Virus record (IMG/VR): IMGVR_UViG_2541047679_000002
Strand: one strand, 5' to 3'
Length of the DNA stretch: 6,008 nt
Origin: a virus
Taxonomy: Duplodnaviria; Heunggongvirae; Uroviricota; Caudoviricetes
Shown in pieces: positions 3 through 5,616 of the stretch. Position numbers and translations under genes: made by a program. Under the pieces are notes generated by a model that was given only the letters and a program-made list of their open reading frames with translations, searched no databases and was not told where the DNA came from. How positions within the stretch are numbered: position 1 is the first letter of the stretch; each line of letters begins with the position of its first letter.

Positions 3-3000
3 ACTGGTGCATCCATCTGGCTTGCCACGAAAAAAGATAAACGCTTTGACGCTGTGGTTGTCGCTGTATCCGCTAACAACATGGTTCATGTTGTGGAACA
101 ACTGGTAAACATGTACCCGGCGGCAAAAATCACCTGCGCACTGGATAATGACCGGAAATCAGCTACAGAAGGAAAAGGGAATACCGGCCTGCGGACTGGC
201 TATGAAATCTTATCGAAATTCAACGATGTCCGCTGCGTCTATCCAACTTTTGAAGACGATCCGCAAATGGAGTGCAGTGACTTCAACGACCTGCACAAAC
301 TACGTGGACTTCGTGAAACAGCACGTCAACTGTTTGCAACTGCAAACCGCCTGAAAACTGGCACTGATTTGCTATCTCTGACGCTCAACCGCCTGAAGAC
401 AATTAAGCGGGATAACCGTCGTACTTTTGCCAAAGAGCTGCTGAGAGCGGTGGATATTGGCATGCTAACCTGTCCGGTTCCTAACAGTCCGTCAGACTTA
501 TTTAACATGTTCTGCATCGTTCTGCGTGAAATGGGGCTGGAAAATATCTATCGCGCTACGGTAAAAGACCACATTGCCCGTCGCCTGAATAAAAAGTGCC
601 GTATTGCCCAGGCTCCGCGCTCATTCAGCGAACGCATAACTGATCCCAATAAACGTCCTCAACATATCACCTATAAGCGTTTTGAAACTTCGGTAATGAC
701 CGATGACGTCCTGAAGTACGTGCAATCACTACAGGGGATAGTCATCGTCCGTGCTGGTATGGGTTCCGGCAAATCTACTGGATTGTTACGACCGTTAATG
801 CATAGCTCAGAACGTGGTATCTCTGTTGCTCACCGTGTCTCCCTTATTGGTGGCCTGTGGGAAATGATGACAGAAGGAAAAGGTGTAAAAGCCGATATCC
901 TGCACTATCAGGACCCTGGCTATCAGGAAATGGCTCCATACGCCAGTAAACTGACCATCTGCATAAACTCGATTGTTAAAAACTGCTGGCAACCGTTGAT
1001 GCGCCAGCACGACTATTTTGGCTTTGACGAGGCCACACAAGGGCTACGTGCCGTTCTTTCCGGTCGGGCTATGGAAAACCCGGTGGCTGTATTCCATACG
1101 CTAATTGACGCGCTGGCCAGAACGGAACAACACCCAATCATGGTGGATGCTGATGCGAACGATCTGCTGGTTGACCTGGCTGAACTGGCTATGAAACGCC
1201 GTGAAGAACTAGGTTTACCGGCATGGCTGCAGATCCACGTAATTGAATTACCTGTTGATGTTCGCAACCGCGAAACAGGTGAGCCAATCCGGGTTTTTTA
1301 TACAGAAAAAGATCGCATTATGACCGAGGTGGTGAAAGCTGTATCGGATGGCGAAAAAATCATGTTGGCCACCGACAGCTCCACCTTTGCAGAAGATGTG
1401 ACAGCCACCCTGAGAATGCATTTTCCTGGTAAGAAATTTCTGTGTGTAAACCAGAAAAGTAAACAGGATGAAGAAGTCGATGCCTTTACCAACCAGCCAA
1501 AAGTAATGGTGATGAAATACGATGGACTGATCTACAGTCCGTCAATTTCCTCCGGGGTGTCATTTGAGAAAAAACATTTTGACCGTCATTTCGGCATGTT
1601 CTGCGGTGAAGTTGTGCCCAGCGACGCAGTGCAAATGCTACGCCGCGACCGTACAGCAAAAGAATTTATTATCGGCTTTGATAAAGCTCGTGCAAAACGC
1701 GAGACTGATCCGCAAAAAATAGAACGTGCATTCGCCCAGGCATTACTTGCTACCGCAGGCATGAACGGTGAACTGACGGATGTCGTTTTCGATGGCGACC
1801 GTATATCAATGGGGGTGGCCAATACCGACTTTACCAGGATGAAAATTAAAGCTGCCGCAATTGAAGCGTCTGCGCGTAACGACTACGCCAGCAACATGAT
1901 CTGCATCATGCACAGCGACGGTTATAAGGTATCGCCATTAGCTACCGATTATGCCGCGAATGATTTTGGTAAAGAGCTGCGCAAAGAAGCGCGGGATATT
2001 GTGTGGGAACAGACGCTGGATCTGCACCTCAATACAGAGACACCAGAAGAATCAGAGCGTGAAGAACTGCTAAAAAAACGTGCGCTAACGCTTGAAGAAC
2101 AGGCAAAACTGGTCCGCTGGGATATTGAGAACGAACTGAAATTACCGGTTGAAGAAGGCTCGCTGAAATTCTATTTCGATGGCGCTCGAGACAAAATTCG
2201 CCGTTATGAAACGATGCTGCTTGATGAAGTCACAGCCCGTCGTTATGACCGTGAAGAAGCGGCTATCAATTTTACATACGCGTACCGCCAGACCGGACAG
2301 TGGCAATATTTTGTGGTGACCGCGATGACGCGCGAGCAGGCTGATGATGTATTCAAAGCGAAATTTCCAGGAATAATCGACTACAAGGTAAAAGCTACCC
2401 CTGCTGTTGAGGTCGGCATGCGCGGATTCTATGCGCTTAAATCAGCGACTCTCCGGCAGTACTTTATCGACTGCGGTATCGACCCTGAAACTATGACCGG
2501 CGAAGCGACGCAGGAACGTCTCAAGTTCGCTAGAGACAACCTAATGACAGCAGAACGCCGTGATATGTTGAATAACGTTCTGCACATTGGTGGCTTTATG
2601 ACACCAAAAGGGAAGCCTAAAGTGCCGGAAGCACTGTTTAAAAACATCTGCGACTCTCTCGGCCTAAAAACAGGAAAACGTCGCGGCAGAGATGGCGATA
2701 AGCGCCCGACATTGCGTTTTGTTGAGCCTGAGTCTGTAGCATTTATACTTGATATTCTTGCGCAACGTCAGGAGGACGGTATGACGTTGAAAGCTCGCAA
2801 GGCGGAAAAATCAACGACCGAAGTGGATCGCGATTTGTCATTAAATATATATATGAATGGTGAAACGCGATCCACAAACACGGTGGAACAGGATTCCCCT
2901 CGTTCAGCTATATCACAGGCTTTGGCCGTATTGCCGGTGGCTGTTCCTGAGTCCTGGGCGATGAGTGCTCTGCCATCAGCTGAACTGGAATCTATCAGGG

Positions 3001-3143
3001 GGTGGTCAGTTGACAGCATCGCATACACGTTTGCAGCCCTTTATATGACTGAGTTTATGGATTTGCTGTCCGGTCATGAGATTAAGTTGCTGAAGGCTTT
3101 TATAGGCCCACGACATGCCAGCGATGAGTTTTGTGTAGTTTAG
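3..3143 (+). CDS. Replication protein, primase/helicase-like (Toprim-like motif plus P-loop NTPase); 5'-partial, continues upstream of the window
   Basis: Continuous ORF (track 54..3143, 1029 codons) whose frame stays open back to nt 3 with no stop, so the true start is upstream. Motifs read directly: DND at nt 144-152 within KITCALDNDRK (Toprim-like DxD); Walker A GMGSGKST at nt 756-779; Walker-B-like FGFDE at nt 1017-1031. Stop TAG at 3141-3143. Domain calls are from motif recognition only. Confidence 0.78.
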   Translation, partial: TGASIWLATKKDKRFDAVVVAVSANNMVHVVEQLVNMYPAAKITCALDNDRKSATEGKGNTGLRTGYEILSKFNDVRCVYPTFEDDPQMECSDFNDLHKLRGLRETARQLFATANRLKTGTDLLSLTLNRLKTIKRDNRRTFAKELLRAVDIGMLTCPVPNSPSDLFNMFCIVLREMGLENIYRATVKDHIARRLNKKCRIAQAPRSFSERITDPNKRPQHITYKRFETSVMTDDVLKYVQSLQGIVIVRAGMGSGKSTGLLRPLMHSSERGISVAHRVSLIGGLWEMMTEGKGVKADILHYQDPGYQEMAPYASKLTICINSIVKNCWQPLMRQHDYFGFDEATQGLRAVLSGRAMENPVAVFHTLIDALARTEQHPIMVDADANDLLVDLAELAMKRREELGLPAWLQIHVIELPVDVRNRETGEPIRVFYTEKDRIMTEVVKAVSDGEKIMLATDSSTFAEDVTATLRMHFPGKKFLCVNQKSKQDEEVDAFTNQPKVMVMKYDGLIYSPSISSGVSFEKKHFDRHFGMFCGEVVPSDAVQMLRRDRTAKEFIIGFDKARAKRETDPQKIERAFAQALLATAGMNGELTDVVFDGDRISMGVANTDFTRMKIKAAAIEASARNDYASNMICIMHSDGYKVSPLATDYAANDFGKELRKEARDIVWEQTLDLHLNTETPEESEREELLKKRALTLEEQAKLVRWDIENELKLPVEEGSLKFYFDGARDKIRRYETMLLDEVTARRYDREEAAINFTYAYRQTGQWQYFVVTAMTREQADDVFKAKFPGIIDYKVKATPAVEVGMRGFYALKSATLRQYFIDCGIDPETMTGEATQERLKFARDNLMTAERRDMLNNVLHIGGFMTPKGKPKVPEALFKNICDSLGLKTGKRRGRDGDKRPTLRFVEPESVAFILDILAQRQEDGMTLKARKAEKSTTEVDRDLSLNIYMNGETRSTNTVEQDSPRSAISQALAVLPVAVPESWAMSALPSAELESIRGWSVDSIAYTFAALYMTEFMDLLSGHEIKLLKAFIGPRHASDEFCVV

Positions 3144-4100: not shown

Positions 4101-4129
4101 TTAGTAAAGCAAACTATAAAAACACCTGT

Positions 4130-4149
4130 CCCCGTGACTGGTCACGGGG
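4130..4149. promoter_or_regulatory. Perfect 9-bp inverted repeat CCCCGTGAC-TG-GTCACGGGG; candidate protein-binding palindrome or hairpin
   Basis: Left arm 4130-4138 and right arm 4141-4149 are exact reverse complements. Not followed by a T-run on the + strand, so not a canonical intrinsic terminator; on the minus strand a T5 run starts 6 nt after the stem. Confidence 0.3.
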
Positions 4150-4169: not shown

Positions 4170-4199
4170 TTGACGTGTGCGTCGTTTTGACGGTAAAGT
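4170..4199 (+). promoter_or_regulatory. Candidate sigma70-type promoter TTGACG-N18-TAAAGT
   Basis: TTGACG at 4170-4175 and TAAAGT at 4194-4199 (18-bp spacer); predicted start near 4207. Hexamer match only. Confidence 0.3.
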
Positions 4200-4206
4200 T
4201 ACTCCG

Positions 4207-4282
4207 CTGCGGTAAATCCCGCAGTCGGGACTCTCAACCCCGAAATCCGAACGACGCACAACACGCGCCAGCGTGTTTTTTT
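4207..4282 (+). ncRNA. Candidate small terminated transcript (about 76 nt): sRNA or leader/attenuator
   Basis: Bounded by the candidate promoter and the intrinsic terminator. Contains hairpin CTGCGG/CCGCAG (4206-4211 / 4219-4224) and a second possible stem CGGG/CCCG whose loop carries ACTCTCAAC (4230-4238). The overlapping track ORF 4154..4369 runs through the terminator and is unlikely to be coding. Confidence 0.3.
4260..4282 (+). terminator. Rho-independent terminator
   Basis: Stem ACACGC (4261-4266), loop GCCA, stem GCGTGT (4271-4276), followed directly by a run of T ending at 4282. Confidence 0.6.
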
Positions 4283-4364
4283 GTGTGTATAAGCCTGCGC
4301 ATATCCGAATTATGGTGGCTCAGGCGGGGCAGCCGAAAGGCTGGCCGGTGTCGTTTGGGCCGGT

Positions 4365-4420
4365 GTTGAGAACCCCGCTTGGGCTACCACCCTATAGAGA
4401 TTCTCAACTCTGGTGGTAGC
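4365..4420 (+). promoter_or_regulatory. Interleaved complementary boxes in the icd-like leader; candidate antisense-RNA/target pairs (P1 c4-type) or RNA pseudoknot
   Basis: GTTGAGAA (4365-4372) is the exact reverse complement of TTCTCAAC (4401-4408); GCTACCACC (4383-4391) is the exact reverse complement of GGTGGTAGC (4412-4420). Order is A, B, A', B' (crossing), ending 29 nt upstream of the icd-like ATG. Confidence 0.4.
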
Positions 4421-4448
4421 ACTGTTCTTCCAAACAAGAGTGCATACC

Positions 4449-4613
4449 ATGTTCAAATTCAAATTTGCGGCAGTCGTTCGCACAGACAAAAAGTCACACA
4501 TCCATCATCTTTCCACTATCGCGTCATCTGAACGGGAAGCTCGTCGCCAGTTCGCCAGCCGGTTTGTCCTGGTATTGTCTGCCCGTATTCCGGTGCGCGA
4601 GGTGGCTGCATGA
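4449..4613 (+). CDS. icd: Icd-like protein (host cell division inhibitor Icd family), 54 aa
   Basis: ATG at 4449 with weak SD AAGAG upstream. Translation MFKFKFAAVVRTDKKSHIHHLSTIASSEREARRQFASRFVLVLSARIPVREVAA shows the SEREAR and AR(I/L)PV pattern I recall for Icd-like proteins of enterobacterial prophages. Track ORF 4413..4613 starts at an upstream GTG lacking an SD. Confidence 0.7.
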   Translation: MFKFKFAAVVRTDKKSHIHHLSTIASSEREARRQFASRFVLVLSARIPVREVAA

Positions 4614-4843
4614 ATCAGGTAAAAATGAACACTGTTGGCCTGCTGGAATCGTTGGATGAACGTCTGGCTCAGGTCTATGCGCTTGTGTCATCAGCCCATC
4701 GTACAGTCTCCAGTTGTGAGGCGTCGATTTATCTCTCAGAAGCCGGGAAGCTCCTTCAAATCGCGTGTGAGTTGACACACGAAGCACAGGGGTATTCAGC
4801 ATCTCTCTCGTCGCAATTGCAGCACAATAAGGAGGCCAAATGA
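4610..4843 (+). CDS. Hypothetical protein (77 aa), translationally coupled between icd-like and antirepressor genes
   Basis: ATG at 4610 overlaps the icd-like stop (ATGA, 4610-4613); its own stop overlaps the next start (ATGA, 4840-4843). Predicted helical, no recognisable family; an internal ATG at 4625 is an alternative start. Confidence 0.55.
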   Translation: MNQVKMNTVGLLESLDERLAQVYALVSSAHRTVSSCEASIYLSEAGKLLQIACELTHEAQGYSASLSSQLQHNKEAK

Positions 4844-5616
4844 GCGCGTTAGCTGTATTTTCGTTTCAGGAAGAGCATCAGGTTCGTGTAGTGATGATTA
4901 ACGGTGAGCCGTGGTTTGTTGCATCTGATGTGTGTATGGCGGCGGGTATTGATTCTACGGCCATTAGAAAGTTGGATGAGGACGAAAAGGGTCTGCATTT
5001 AATGCAGACCCCTGGCGGATACCAGAATGTTTCAATCATCAACGAGTCAGGTCTATACACCCTGATCCTCCGCTGCCGTGACGCGGTGAAGCAAGGCACA
5101 ACAGCTTGGCGGTTTCGCAAATGGGTAACGAACGAAGTCTTGCCCTCTATTCGCAAAAATGGAGAGTACGTTTACATCGAGCCTGAGCCAATGCGAGCAG
5201 CGGAGCCGTTGAACGGGAGGCAGAAAGCGTATCTGCGAGGGCTGATTAACGATATAGCACAAAGTTTTCGGTGCCGAAATGCCTGGATCAGTGGAATATG
5301 GTTGGCTTTGCGTCGGGCGTGTCGTAATCCATCCCCGAACCCCATAACGGTTGATGATTTGCCAGCAATTGCGGCAGAACTGCGCAGGATTTTGACGGCT
5401 GCTGAGTCGGCATTGAGGAACATGCGCACGTATGAACGGGAGTTGTTGCGTGATGTTGTTCGTGGGGGTAGGCGGAGTATGTCGTGTGGTGATTTGCCCA
5501 TCATCGATATCAACTCTGATCTGGAAAAGGCGTTACCCGCACATTTTGAACTGGCAGTTCAAAAACTTGAGCAGTTATCCGCGCAGTTAAAGCCAGCAGA
5601 AATCACTAATAAATAG
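4840..5616 (+). CDS. Bro-N domain antirepressor-like protein (258 aa)
   Basis: Strong SD AAGGAGG (4829-4835) 4 nt before ATG 4840. N-terminal about 110 aa match the Bro-N pattern (FSFQ...GEPWFVASDVC...LDEDEKG...GGYQ...INESGLYTLILR...WVTNEVLPSIRKNGEY). C-terminal about 140 aa not recognised. Stop TAG at 5614-5616. Confidence 0.85.
   Translation: MSALAVFSFQEEHQVRVVMINGEPWFVASDVCMAAGIDSTAIRKLDEDEKGLHLMQTPGGYQNVSIINESGLYTLILRCRDAVKQGTTAWRFRKWVTNEVLPSIRKNGEYVYIEPEPMRAAEPLNGRQKAYLRGLINDIAQSFRCRNAWISGIWLALRRACRNPSPNPITVDDLPAIAAELRRILTAAESALRNMRTYERELLRDVVRGGRRSMSCGDLPIIDINSDLEKALPAHFELAVQKLEQLSAQLKPAEITNK

Follow-up and report, generated by a model that had tools for sequence, protein, structure and literature searches.

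A predicted C4-type antisense RNA and a conserved third complementarity upstream of icd in an N15-like phage-plasmid

One of the closest described counterparts of the locus considered here is the immA (anti-immunity) locus of N15, in which a CA RNA is reportedly followed by icd, antA and antB, an arrangement attributed to Ravin, Svarchevsky and Deho in 1999. For phage P1, the final step of the corresponding control is said to be Rho-dependent termination, a result credited to Biere, Citron and Schuster in 1992. The c4 RNA of phages P1 and P7 is an antisense repressor of 77 nt that is processed by RNase P; its b' box occludes the ribosome binding site, and its a' box gives specificity (PMC5320573; PMC12197685). 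In Gifsy-1, the homologous a1:a' pairing has been validated by the compensatory mutants G28/C162 and G31/C159 (PMC4825925); our own counting of Gifsy-1 sequence positions assigns the two G residues to a1 and the two C residues to a'. For Gifsy-1, and only there, the short form of IsrK is known to accumulate, to bind Hfq and to activate the long transcript in trans (PMC4825925), and in that work the RNA downstream was not regarded as homologous to C4 (Hershko-Shalev et al. 2016). The CI RNA of P4 and phiR73 (seqA, seqB, seqC) resembles the present system in being a small RNA that is processed from the leader of its own operon and has complementary boxes on both sides (PMC7567579). However, it belongs to another RNA family, which has no Rfam match here, and CI causes premature transcription termination, whereas b2 in the present locus lies at the ribosome binding site.

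The window, which is the whole stretch of 6,008 nucleotides analysed from the virus record IMGVR_UViG_2541047679_000002, is 98% identical throughout to the N15-like Escherichia phage YDC107_1 (Ravinvirus). Its leader shares about 80% identity with the immA/cA region of N15 over 588 nt (AF064539, U63086), the gene order is the same as the cA-icd-antA-antB order of N15, and the site likewise falls between the repA-side genes and telN. This leader is matched by 177 plasmid records, and the elements are common in Klebsiella and E. coli. The region is very likely the regulatory leader of a secondary-immunity (immA/immI-type) antirepressor operon of an N15-like phage-plasmid, encoding a C4/CA-type antisense RNA that acts in trans through a'/a2 and b'/b2, with B/B' as a possible third contact. 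The locus is thus a further example of a classic phage immunity device, of a kind already known. Public annotations name the region as a protein ('secondary immunity repressor', gp32), and because public records still do so, reannotation would be worthwhile. The features of the locus are as follows.

4170-4199, + strand: predicted sigma-70 promoter (consensus scan: TTGACG, 18-nt spacer, TAAAGT).
4206-4283, + strand: predicted leader or short IsrK-like RNA, with hairpins at 4207-4224 and 4225-4243 and an intrinsic terminator at 4260-4277 plus U run (terminator scan).
4232-4238, + strand: a1 box TCTCAAC in the loop of the second leader hairpin, complement of a'.
4247-4257, + strand: b1 box CCGAACGACGC, complement of b' (P3 loop) with 11 bp, 2 of them G-U.
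4314-4391, + strand: predicted mature C4/CA antisense RNA of 78 nt (stem P1, 4313-4329/4373-4389; P2, 4330-4343; P3, 4344-4364).
4349-4359, + strand: b' box UGUCGUUUGGG in the P3 loop, the true counterpart of b' in phage P1.
4365-4372, + strand: a' box GTTGAGAA, arm A, in the single-stranded junction from P3 to the 3' strand of stem P1.
4383-4391, + strand: B, GCTACCACC, arm B, the last 9 nt of the predicted mature C4 (6 in the closing stem, 3 forming the ACC tail).
4395-4412, + strand: small hairpin UAGAG/CUCUG (from folding), with a2 (TTCTCAAC, 4401-4408; arm A') in its loop.
4412-4420, + strand: B' box GGTGGTAGC, arm B', between a2 and b2, complement of the C4 3' end and 5' strand of the start-site hairpin.
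4413-4450, + strand: predicted start-site (TIR) hairpin, 4413-4423/4439-4450, with one bulge.
4430-4435, + strand: b2 box CCAAAC, complement of the b' loop, adjoining the Shine-Dalgarno sequence AAGAG (4436-4440).
4449-4613, + strand: icd-like ORF of 54 aa, first gene of the operon (NF033153 phage_ICD_like, 67 bits against a cutoff of 25).
4610-4843 and 4840-5616, + strand: antA-like ORF and antB-like Bro-N antirepressor ORF (Pfam Bro-N; PHROG anti-repressor families; AntA/AntB annotation in phiKO2).

With N15, the window has the promoter, the terminator, the C4 fold and the B/B' boxes in common, and the a boxes of the two are identical (GTTGAGAA, TTCTCAAC and TCTCAAC). The b specificity differs, with UGUCGUUUGGG as b', CCAAAC as b2 and CCGAACGACGC as b1 here and UUUCUUCUUGUA, UACAAGA and ACAAGAAG, respectively, in N15. 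Therefore, the window joins the N15 a type to another b type. The immI region of P1 and P7 presents the same order of promoter, a1, b1, terminator-like hairpin, c4, a2, b2, icd and ant, places a' at the junction and b' in the loop of P3, has the ACC tail and the UUAU/GGU context, and encodes an Icd of the same NCBIfam family. A box resembling B' likewise lies between a2 and b2 in phage P1, namely GGTAGCAGG against CCTGCCACC (8/9). In contrast, the box sequences are unrelated, the antirepressor here consists of AntA and the Bro-N protein AntB rather than Ant1/2, and b2 of P1 covers the Shine-Dalgarno sequence and stops 10 nt short of the ATG, whereas b2 here adjoins that sequence, with 13 nt between its end and the ATG. 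The IsrK/STnc1160/anrP system of Gifsy-1 (Hershko-Shalev et al. 2016) similarly comprises isrK, C4, a2, B' (GGTGGTGAT), a b2 overlapping the Shine-Dalgarno sequence, and an antirepressor. It differs in being without icd, so that the antirepressor follows directly and is translationally coupled to 'orf45', which is read through the C4 region; the equivalent frame ends here at the TAG at 4417-4419, inside B'.

Attention was first drawn to this leader by two exact inverted repeats in crossing order. Both are found at the positions given for them in the original prediction, GTTGAGAA (4365-4372) with TTCTCAAC (4401-4408) as pair A and GCTACCACC (4383-4391) with GGTGGTAGC (4412-4420) as pair B, and no Watson-Crick extension is possible at either end of either helix. 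The arrangement had been judged unlikely to arise by chance, and indeed none of 5000 dinucleotide-preserving shuffles of 4190-4470 contained a crossing pair of 8 and 9 nt; single exact inverted repeats within 60 nt occurred in 13% (at least 8 nt) and 3.2% (at least 9 nt) of the same shuffles. The additional same-sense copy of TCTCAAC noted at 4232-4238 is also present, in the loop of a hairpin (4225-4229/4239-4243) predicted both by folding and by the Rfam isrK and c4-a1b1 alignments. Among homologous leaders, where the original prediction had suggested looking for covariation, both box pairs show compensatory changes.

The repeats had been described as lying just upstream of the icd-like start. 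They do lie upstream, with the correction that the icd-like ATG is at 4449-4451, 28 nt past the second box; the GTG at 4413, which some annotations use as the start, was rejected. Homologous ORFs of 165 nt are annotated as Icd in phiKO2, PY54 and KpLi5, and phage P1 Icd itself scores 52.6 bits against NF033153. A BLASTP comparison of the icd-like ORF with P1 Icd gave no match, and the relationship is visible only through this family model. Likewise, a Pfam search with the icd-like and antA-like ORFs matched no family. The icd-, antA- and antB-like ORFs are joined by ATGA overlaps.

The C4 assignment is carried by a full-length match to the Rfam C4 model (RF01695) at 4308-4394, which scores 73.8 bits against a gathering threshold of 45 (E = 1.5e-13); phage P1 c4 scores 68.8 bits against the same model. 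Together with the identity to N15 immA/cA and the NF033153 match, this bears out the placement of the locus in the P1 c4 family. The minimum of the predicted fold (MFE -50.6 kcal/mol, z-score -4.9) is the Rfam structure. The ends of the RNA were inferred by model position from the annotated 77-nt c4 of phage P1 (18344-18420), and a processing context like that of P1 c4 is present in register with the annotated c4 ends, with UUAU/GGU at 4310-4316 and the ACC tail at 4389-4391. In 36 relatives, stem P1 is 100% paired, and P2, which has a GAAA loop, shows compensatory changes in four of its five pairs. When the C4 stems, the leader hairpin and the start-site hairpin are counted together, the overall pairing in these relatives is 94%, 18 pairs have changed on both sides, and none of 500 shuffles equals this result.

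The predicted promoter is kept in N15-like relatives, and the start predicted near 4206 is where the Rfam isrK model also begins. This model (RF01394) matches 4206-4281 with 54.7 bits against a gathering threshold of 50, and the overlapping c4-a1b1 match on the leader reaches 30.4 bits, which is under its gathering threshold of 46.7. The leader fold has a z-score of -3.4, and the first leader hairpin is 100% paired in the 36 relatives, with four compensatory pairs. GACGGTAAAG (4189-4198) was considered as a b1-like partner of arm B and was rejected, as it falls within the predicted promoter and precedes the start site.

In the relatives, a'/a2 is 91% paired and five of its eight pairs have changed on both sides in 3-20 of the 36 sequences (17-20 for four of these pairs), while a1/a' is also 91% paired, with both sides changed in five of seven pairs; a', a2 and a1 covary together through five specificity types. 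A downstream complement of a' of at least 7 nt is found in 154/154 C4 loci, compared with 6% when boxes from other loci are used. For these 154 diverse loci, complements in the own flanks occur at 100/93% for a' (6% with other loci) and at 81/69% for b' (4% with other loci). The a2 box is predicted to be accessible, with an unpaired probability of 0.85, and the stem of its hairpin is 93% paired in the 36 relatives and hardly variable.

The b' box covaries with both b1 and b2. The b1/b' duplex (-18.9 kcal/mol) is 82% paired with six compensatory pairs, and a match of at least 7 nt is found at 69% with the own locus and at 4.6% with other loci. The b'/b2 duplex is short, with 6 bp and -8.6 kcal/mol, and b2 adjoins rather than covers the Shine-Dalgarno sequence. 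Own-locus complements for b'/b2 are nevertheless found at 81% versus 3.6% with other loci, and the covariation is also visible by eye; a column-based count gives only 69% paired because the register shifts. RNAcofold of the mature C4 with its target found no intermolecular pairs, but loop-loop contacts are outside its model and this null result is therefore uninformative.

At the start of icd, the loop of the predicted start-site hairpin holds b2 and the 5' part of the Shine-Dalgarno sequence, whereas the stem takes up the final two Shine-Dalgarno bases (4439-4440), the spacer, and the first two bases of the ATG. The unpaired probability is 0.13 for the spacer and AUG and 0.04-0.07 for B'. This hairpin is 88% paired in the 36 relatives, with five compensatory pairs. 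In the predicted fold, B' would best be read as an anti-start-site strand.

Pair B joins this strand to the 3' end of C4. Arm B has two possible partners, the 5' arm of stem P1, where the helix includes G-U pairs, and B', where the match is perfect. Pairing of B with B' reaches 100% in the 36 N15-type sequences, with a compensatory change in phiKO2, and the complementarity is conserved and covarying across 132 C4 loci. In a table of 29 distinct family triples, where the B' register was picked by best pairing and the rows are non-independent lineages, its pairing is 94% and five of nine pairs show compensatory changes. The pairing score is 8.5/9 within the own locus and 7.1 with swapped loci. 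The 5' arm, B and B' covary three ways, as in TGGCGGG, TTCGCCACC and GGTGGCGA, and the order a2-B'-b2 is fixed in 134/134 loci. To our knowledge, this complementarity has been mentioned in the literature only in passing, as a possible terminator.

Tentatively, B/B' might be a third, family-wide regulatory helix of C4 systems. The start-site hairpin, B:B' and the closing stem would then form a three-way toggle through which leader pairing or RNase P processing affects how icd and the antirepressor are translated. When the rest of C4 is folded, the complete closing stem is favoured over the inner stem plus B:B' by 4-5 kcal/mol in 35-36 of the 36 relatives, and whether B:B' appears in the full-length MFE depends on the chosen 3' end. 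Two specific versions were set aside. One is a timer in which the outer closing stem of the nascent transcript spontaneously gives way to pairing with B', which this stability of the full stem does not support. The other is a switch conformer combining leader:C4 pairing with B:B', which in many relatives comes out as the MFE for an RNA ending at ATG+13 and is lost in the window with an end at 4480. A role for the C4 3' end as a natural external guide (EGS) for RNase P on the mRNA is also unlikely: RNase P requires the ACC tail to be free, and in the conserved B/B' register this tail is paired.

The crossing order itself suggested a cis pseudoknot, and such a structure is sterically possible. 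The functional form would then be a pseudoknot of the H type, in which a':a2 and B:B' coexist on the transcript before it is processed, and it would control processing or translation without a trans RNA. Its loops of 10, 9 and 3 nt should be compatible with both helices, each of which is individually backed by covariation, and some full-length MFEs do include B:B'. However, B:B' requires that the outer closing stem be melted, at a predicted net cost of 4-5 kcal/mol, the homologs P1 c4 and IsrK act in trans, and covariation can neither separate cis from trans nor show that two helices exist simultaneously. Overall, we regard this structure as a doubtful candidate for the functional form.

A different cis-regulatory idea, raised by Weinberg et al. 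(2010), would have B:B' act as a terminator or attenuator, a hairpin in competition with the closing stem of C4. The isolated hairpin is stable (-18 kcal/mol, z-score -4.9), and A/U-rich tails such as TTTTCTAAAA come after B' in loci of the lambdoid type. Here, however, the 8 nt after B' are ACTGTTCT, with 4 T, and N15-type sequences have a mean of 2.1 T in these 8 positions. The hairpin loop is 20 nt, unlike the short loop and U-tract of an intrinsic terminator; a terminator scan called no site there, although its loop limit of 3-8 nt excludes this hairpin anyway. Attenuation by B:B' therefore seems improbable at this locus.

Very little credit can be given to a literal mapping in which both pairs are the P1-type a'/a2 and b'/b2, with GCTACCACC as b' and GGTGGTAGC as b2. 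The original prediction had likened the boxes to the P1 c4 arrangement, the boxes are exact complements near the icd-like gene, and much of this mapping stands: the C4 family is correct, an antisense arrangement precedes the icd-like gene, pair A is a'/a2, and the copy at 4232-4238 is a1. Pair B, however, is not b'/b2. The annotated b' of phage P1 is the P3 loop (UCACUAAC), which lies 5' of a', so that a'/a2 and b'/b2 are nested rather than crossing, and b2 of P1 lies 10 nt before the icd ATG. The P3 loop here has its own covarying partners at 4430-4435 and 4247-4257. Moreover, GCTACCACC is closing stem plus tail and is nearly invariant rather than specificity-determining, and a copy of B' upstream of C4 is found in 2% of the C4 loci, which is background. 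It is scarcely credible that the repeats are not RNA elements at all and instead reflect chance, operator palindromes in the DNA, or coding sequence, as in the older reading of cA/gp32 as an ORF for a 'secondary immunity repressor'. Although the N15 and YDC107_1 records annotate ORFs across the region and ORFs at 4273-4419 and 4413-4613 exist, the shuffles never reproduced the arrangement, the covariance-model match is strong, the stretch from B' to the Shine-Dalgarno sequence has indels without frame conservation, and the pairs covary through G-U variants that are compatible with RNA of the + strand only.

For the preferred reading, a C4-type RNA acting in trans, we infer the promoter, the RNA ends, the processing and the trans action at this locus, and the following series of events can be proposed. 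A promoter near 4170-4199 would drive a leader with the target boxes a1 and b1, and most transcripts would probably end at the terminator at 4260-4283 to give a short IsrK-like RNA. Transcripts that read through would carry the C4 RNA (about 4314-4391), a2, B', b2, the Shine-Dalgarno sequence and icd-antA-antB. By homology with P1 and N15, C4 would be excised by an RNase P cut 5' of the GGU at 4314 and would then act in trans, with a' pairing to a2 in its hairpin loop and the P3 loop b' pairing to b2 beside the Shine-Dalgarno sequence. Pairing at a2 and b2 would block icd translation and thereby antirepressor expression. The a1 and b1 boxes of the leader or of the short RNA would compete for a' and b', as demonstrated for Gifsy-1 IsrK. 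In addition, the 3' end of C4 could capture B' once the closing stem opens, either in an unprocessed transcript or in a C4-mRNA complex. Access to the icd start would thereby depend, in one direction or the other, on how C4 is folded or processed.

Among N15-like phage-plasmids, 5 a types and about 9 b types occur, and the two kinds of box assort independently of each other. Because of this assortment, and because the elements are carried by many plasmids, the a/b combinations map predicted secondary heteroimmunity groups. The B/B' complementarity is conserved from P1 through N15 to lambdoid prophages, and if it is functional, the textbook a/b model of c4 would be incomplete. If the toggle reading is true, C4 would be more than a trans repressor and would also serve as one arm of a conformational switch over the icd start.

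Over all 6 kb, the window shares 98.0% identity with the Ravinvirus Escherichia phage YDC107_1, an N15-like linear phage-plasmid. A 600-nt stretch surrounding the repeats shows ~80% identity to N15 sequence annotated as cA, gene 32, and gene 31, and is also matched by phiKO2, PY54, and several Klebsiella telomere phages; the leader was found in 177 PLSDB plasmids, the majority from Klebsiella. Rfam searches of the window yield the C4 antisense RNA at 4308-4394 (73.8 bits; gathering 45), isrK at 4206-4281 (54.7 bits; gathering 50), and, below threshold, the a1/b1 target model at 4193-4246 (30.4 bits; gathering 46.7). The element belongs to the C4 family, and its ortholog in N15 is the CA RNA locus. 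The original prediction, which placed it in a P1 c4-like family, was right by both the C4 score and N15 cA orthology.

The gene order is a RepA-like replication protein, small ORFs (unlike N15 genes 33-36), the leader, a 54-aa ORF, a 77-aa ORF, a 258-aa Bro-N protein, and a protelomerase on the opposite strand. Counterparts of the three ORFs are annotated as Icd, AntA, and AntB homologs in the phiKO2 record. The 54-aa ORF scores 67 bits on NCBIfam NF033153 (phage_ICD_like), on which P1 Icd scores 52.6 bits, and BLASTP of this ORF against P1 Icd gives no alignment. The 77-aa and 258-aa ORFs match PHROG anti-repressor families and Pfam Bro-N. An icd-like start does lie downstream of the repeats, as had been proposed, at ATG 4449 rather than at 4450 or GTG 4413. 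The long ORF at 54-3143, listed as 1029 aa from an internal GTG, falls within the N15 RepA-like replication protein (Herpes_ori_bp-type match); its gene is cut by the left edge of the window, since YDC107_1 annotates the protein from well upstream of the matching region.

The ends of the mature C4 RNA were placed by aligning the window and P1 Rfam hits, with c4 annotated at 18344-18420 in the P1 record. The features are as follows.

Features of the leader, C4 RNA, and icd start
4170-4199, + strand: predicted sigma-70-like promoter (TTGACG, 18 nt, TAAAGT; the start would be near 4206)
4207-4224, + strand: leader hairpin 1 (predicted fold)
4225-4243, + strand: leader hairpin 2, with TCTCAAC as loop (predicted fold)
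4260-4277, + strand: intrinsic terminator, then a T run (terminator prediction)
G4314-C4391, + strand: predicted mature C4 RNA (alignment to annotated P1 c4)
4313-4329/4373-4389, + strand: C4 closing stem P1 (Rfam and fold)
4330-4343, + strand: C4 stem P2, GAAA loop (Rfam and fold)
4344-4364, + strand: C4 stem P3, loop 4349-4359 (Rfam and fold)
4365-4372, + strand: single-stranded C4 junction, a' (Rfam and fold; the C4 3' end is an ACC tail)
4395-4412, + strand: 5-bp hairpin presenting TTCTCAAC as loop (predicted fold)
4413-4423/4439-4450, + strand: predicted start-site hairpin; loop of CCAAAC (4430-35) and the 5' part of the Shine-Dalgarno AAGAG (4436-40)

In the start-site hairpin, the two 3'-terminal Shine-Dalgarno bases, the spacer, and the first two bases of the start codon are predicted to be paired. 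A hairpin of 8 perfect, GC-rich base pairs without a T run (CCCCGTGA-CTGG-TCACGGGG, 4129-4148) directly precedes the leader promoter; its 3' half is kept in relatives (ACGGGGTAAAAT), and the hairpin may mark where the upstream operon ends or may be a palindrome that binds a protein. In the leader terminator, the 5' half (4258-4272, ACAACACGCGCCAGC) is 80% complementary to the C4 P2/P3 junction (4340-4354, GCTGGCCGGTGTCGT), which prolongs the a1/b1 complementarity; C4 acting on the nascent leader might thus disturb terminator formation and alter its own read-through synthesis.

Two inverted repeats in crossing order, A (4365-4372 with 4401-4408) and B (4383-4391 with 4412-4420), had been reported together with a third copy of TCTCAAC. 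All four arms and the third copy are present exactly at the positions given, and neither helix extends further. Among 5000 dinucleotide-preserving shuffles of 4190-4470, a lone exact inverted repeat within 60 nt is not rare at 8 nt or more (13%) and occurs at 9 nt or more in 3.2%; the crossing 8+9 arrangement never appeared (0/5000), in keeping with the claim that it is improbable by chance. Both pairs also covary in homologous leaders. The accompanying assignment of boxes was half right: A is a'/a2, and B is not b'/b2.

In pair A, the junction box a' corresponds to GTTGAGAA and a2 to TTCTCAAC; TCTCAAC at 4232-38 is a1, which covaries with both and sits, as suspected, in the loop of a predicted leader hairpin. 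Across 36 distinct N15-type leaders the three boxes vary jointly through five types (TCTCAAC, TCGCAA, TGGAAC, TAGGAA, and TGAGAA). The a'/a2 helix is 91% paired, with five of eight pairs altered on both sides in 3-20 of the 36 sequences (17-20 for four pairs), and a1/a' covaries similarly. In a wider set of 154 diverse C4 loci, drawn from IMG/VR by structural pattern, a complement to a' of at least 7 nt occurs in the locus's own downstream flank in 154/154 and upstream flank in 93%, compared to 6% for boxes of other loci. The Gifsy-1 mutations of Hershko-Shalev et al. (PMC4825925), G28 and G31 with C159 and C162, map to a1 and a' of that locus by our own position count in its sequence; thus, the a1:a' helix is backed by compensatory mutations in a homolog.

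The b boxes lie elsewhere. The P1 record gives b1 as GTTAGTGC and b2 as GTTAGTGA, the latter ending 10 nt ahead of the icd ATG, and their complement, UCACUAAC, is the c4 P3 loop, 5' of a'. This places the P1 a and b helices in nested rather than crossing order. In the window too, b' is the P3 loop, with partners of its own and nested with the a helix. This loop (UGUCGUUUGGG) forms 6 bp with CCAAAC (4430-35, b2), which adjoins the Shine-Dalgarno (-8.6 kcal/mol), and 11 bp including two G-U with leader CCGAACGACGC (4247-57, b1; -18.9 kcal/mol), making b1 a far better partner than b2. Among N15-type relatives, the b boxes covary through about nine types that assort independently of the a types, for example UCUUGUA / UACAAGA / ACAAGAAG in N15, UAGCUGAU / AUCAGCUA / CCAGUCAGC in phiKO2, and AACCAAAC in KpLi5. 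There are six compensatory pairs in b1/b'; counted by alignment column, b'/b2 comes to only 69% paired, since loops of differing length move the register. Complements of at least 7 nt to the b' loop occur downstream in 81% and upstream in 69% of the 154 C4 loci (control ~4%). The window shares its a boxes with N15 and differs in its b set, which makes it a recombinant specificity type.

Box B (GCTACCACC) is the final 9 nt of the predicted mature C4, six closing-stem nucleotides plus the ACC tail, and B' (GGTGGTAGC) lies 3 nt past a2 and 9 nt ahead of b2. In the N15-type set, 100% of B/B' cells are paired, with G-U-compatible variants and a compensatory change in phiKO2 (GUCACCACC with GGUGGUGAU). 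There are 12 B variants among 132 C4 loci, the main family-wide pairs being CTACCACC/GGTGGTAG, CTCACCACC/GGTGGTGAG, TTCGCCACC/GGTGGCGA, and CCATCACC/GGTGATGG. Own-locus pairs score 8.5/9 (at least 8 in 95% of loci), versus 7.1 (at least 8 in 20%) when B is swapped from loci of other types. Counted over 29 different triples (5' arm, B, B'), pairing in the B:B' helix is 94%, five of nine pairs are altered on both sides, and 0/500 shuffles reach its covariation score; the outer closing stem gives comparable numbers, and three-way changes exist (e.g., TGGCGGG / TTCGCCACC / GGTGGCGA). The order a2-B'-b2 holds in 134/134 loci, with B' always 8-11 nt from b2 and 27-30 nt from the ATG, and no B' copy was found in the leaders of the C4 loci compared. 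In P1, GGTAGCAGG between a2 and b2 is complementary to CCTGCCACC at 8/9 positions, and in Gifsy-1 B' GGTGGTGAT stands opposite CTCACCACC. As segments, B pairs with B' by Watson-Crick pairs only (-18.0 kcal/mol) and with the closing-stem 5' arm using G-U pairs (-15.2 kcal/mol). A direct repeat (4308-4318, AATTATGGTGG; 4406-4416, AACTCTGGTGG) gives B' a context resembling the predicted RNase P cleavage context at the C4 5' end, and GGUGGU/ACCACC permits a 3-nt slipped register, seen as raised pairing at slide +3.

B' is also part of a local start-site structure in each subfamily examined. In N15-type loci it also supplies the 5' side of the hairpin covering the icd start, whose helix is 88% paired with five compensatory pairs (GCAC/GUGC becomes GUAC/GUAC in one relative, L043). 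This hairpin is robust to context; the spacer and AUG have a P(unpaired) of 0.13, and a2 and b2 one of 0.85-0.87. In Gifsy-1, it is b2 (AUCACC) that the 3' part of B' (GGUGAU) complements, and the lambdoid types have B' at the top of a stem that sequesters the Shine-Dalgarno.

The existence of a B:B' interaction is well supported; it may act in cis or in trans. A putative cis pseudoknot, with a':a2 and B:B' formed together, is sterically possible, as loops of 10, 9, and 3 nt are compatible with it. Reading B:B' as a terminator fails, because N15-type loci offer no U tract in its support. A chance, protein-coding, or DNA-operator origin of the repeats is excluded by the shuffles, by the indels and unconserved reading frame in the stretch from B' to the Shine-Dalgarno, and by covariation through G-U pairs, which fit only RNA of the + strand.

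An ORF at 4312-4419, equivalent to Gifsy-1 'orf45', runs from the invariant ATG of the C4 5' arm (TTATGG) across all of C4 and a2 and ends within B' at a TAG (4417-4419). In a set of 86 distinct C4 loci (IMG/VR, L072-L191; lineages not independent), this frame reaches or passes the downstream start without a stop in 55 (the two alternative frames do so in 21 and 11), and in 45 it matches the reading frame of the downstream gene. Its fusion to icd in N15 accounts for the old 96-aa gp32/cA annotation. Public records extend the icd-like gene N-terminally, from GTG 4413 in YDC107_1 and from within C4 in N15 ('secondary immunity repressor'); such annotations cover 4413-4613 in the window and, in database loci, 4814-5014 (L003) and 1724-2014 (L001). 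Relatives vary, with indels, in the stretch from B' to the Shine-Dalgarno, and the 165-nt ORF is the one called in four other records. These extensions are probably misannotated RNA region. Some IMG/VR prophage contigs carry two or three tandem C4 modules on the same strand, ~653-659 nt apart (L104, three copies; L075, L087, L088, and L146, two each; L121), with differing a, b, and B types and their own matching a2-B'-b2 after each.

Alongside the family membership, fold, covarying a, b, and B complementarities with their fixed geometry, and downstream operon identity documented here, a mechanism can be proposed. By analogy with P1, P7, and N15, C4 would be excised from read-through transcripts, with RNase P cutting 5' of GGU, and would accumulate in lysogens. 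There a' and b' would pair with the a2 and b2 loops, blocking icd translation and hence antirepressor synthesis. A Rho step in P1 was reportedly described by Biere, Citron, and Schuster in 1992. Gifsy-1 and a proposal by Citron and Schuster suggest that repression may be counteracted by a1/b1 competing for a'/b', either in cis or from the short leader RNA left by termination.

The family-wide covarying B/B' complementarity is the only part of this picture beyond the accessible literature, where the sole mention found is by Weinberg et al. (2010), in passing, as a possible terminator. Fold predictions on B:B' versus the closing stem are equivocal. When the rest of C4 is kept folded, the closing stem is favored by a predicted 4-5 kcal/mol in 35-36 of 36 relatives; with the leader included and the RNA ending at ATG+13, a conformer combining leader:C4 and B:B' is predicted to be more stable in 30 of 36, and it is not favored for the window with the RNA end at 4480. 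Our best inference is that three helices compete: the closing stem, B:B', and the start-site hairpin. In the compact C4 fold, B would be buried and B' would close the icd start. If the closing stem were opened, perhaps by leader pairing or by a full duplex with the target, B would be free to capture B'.
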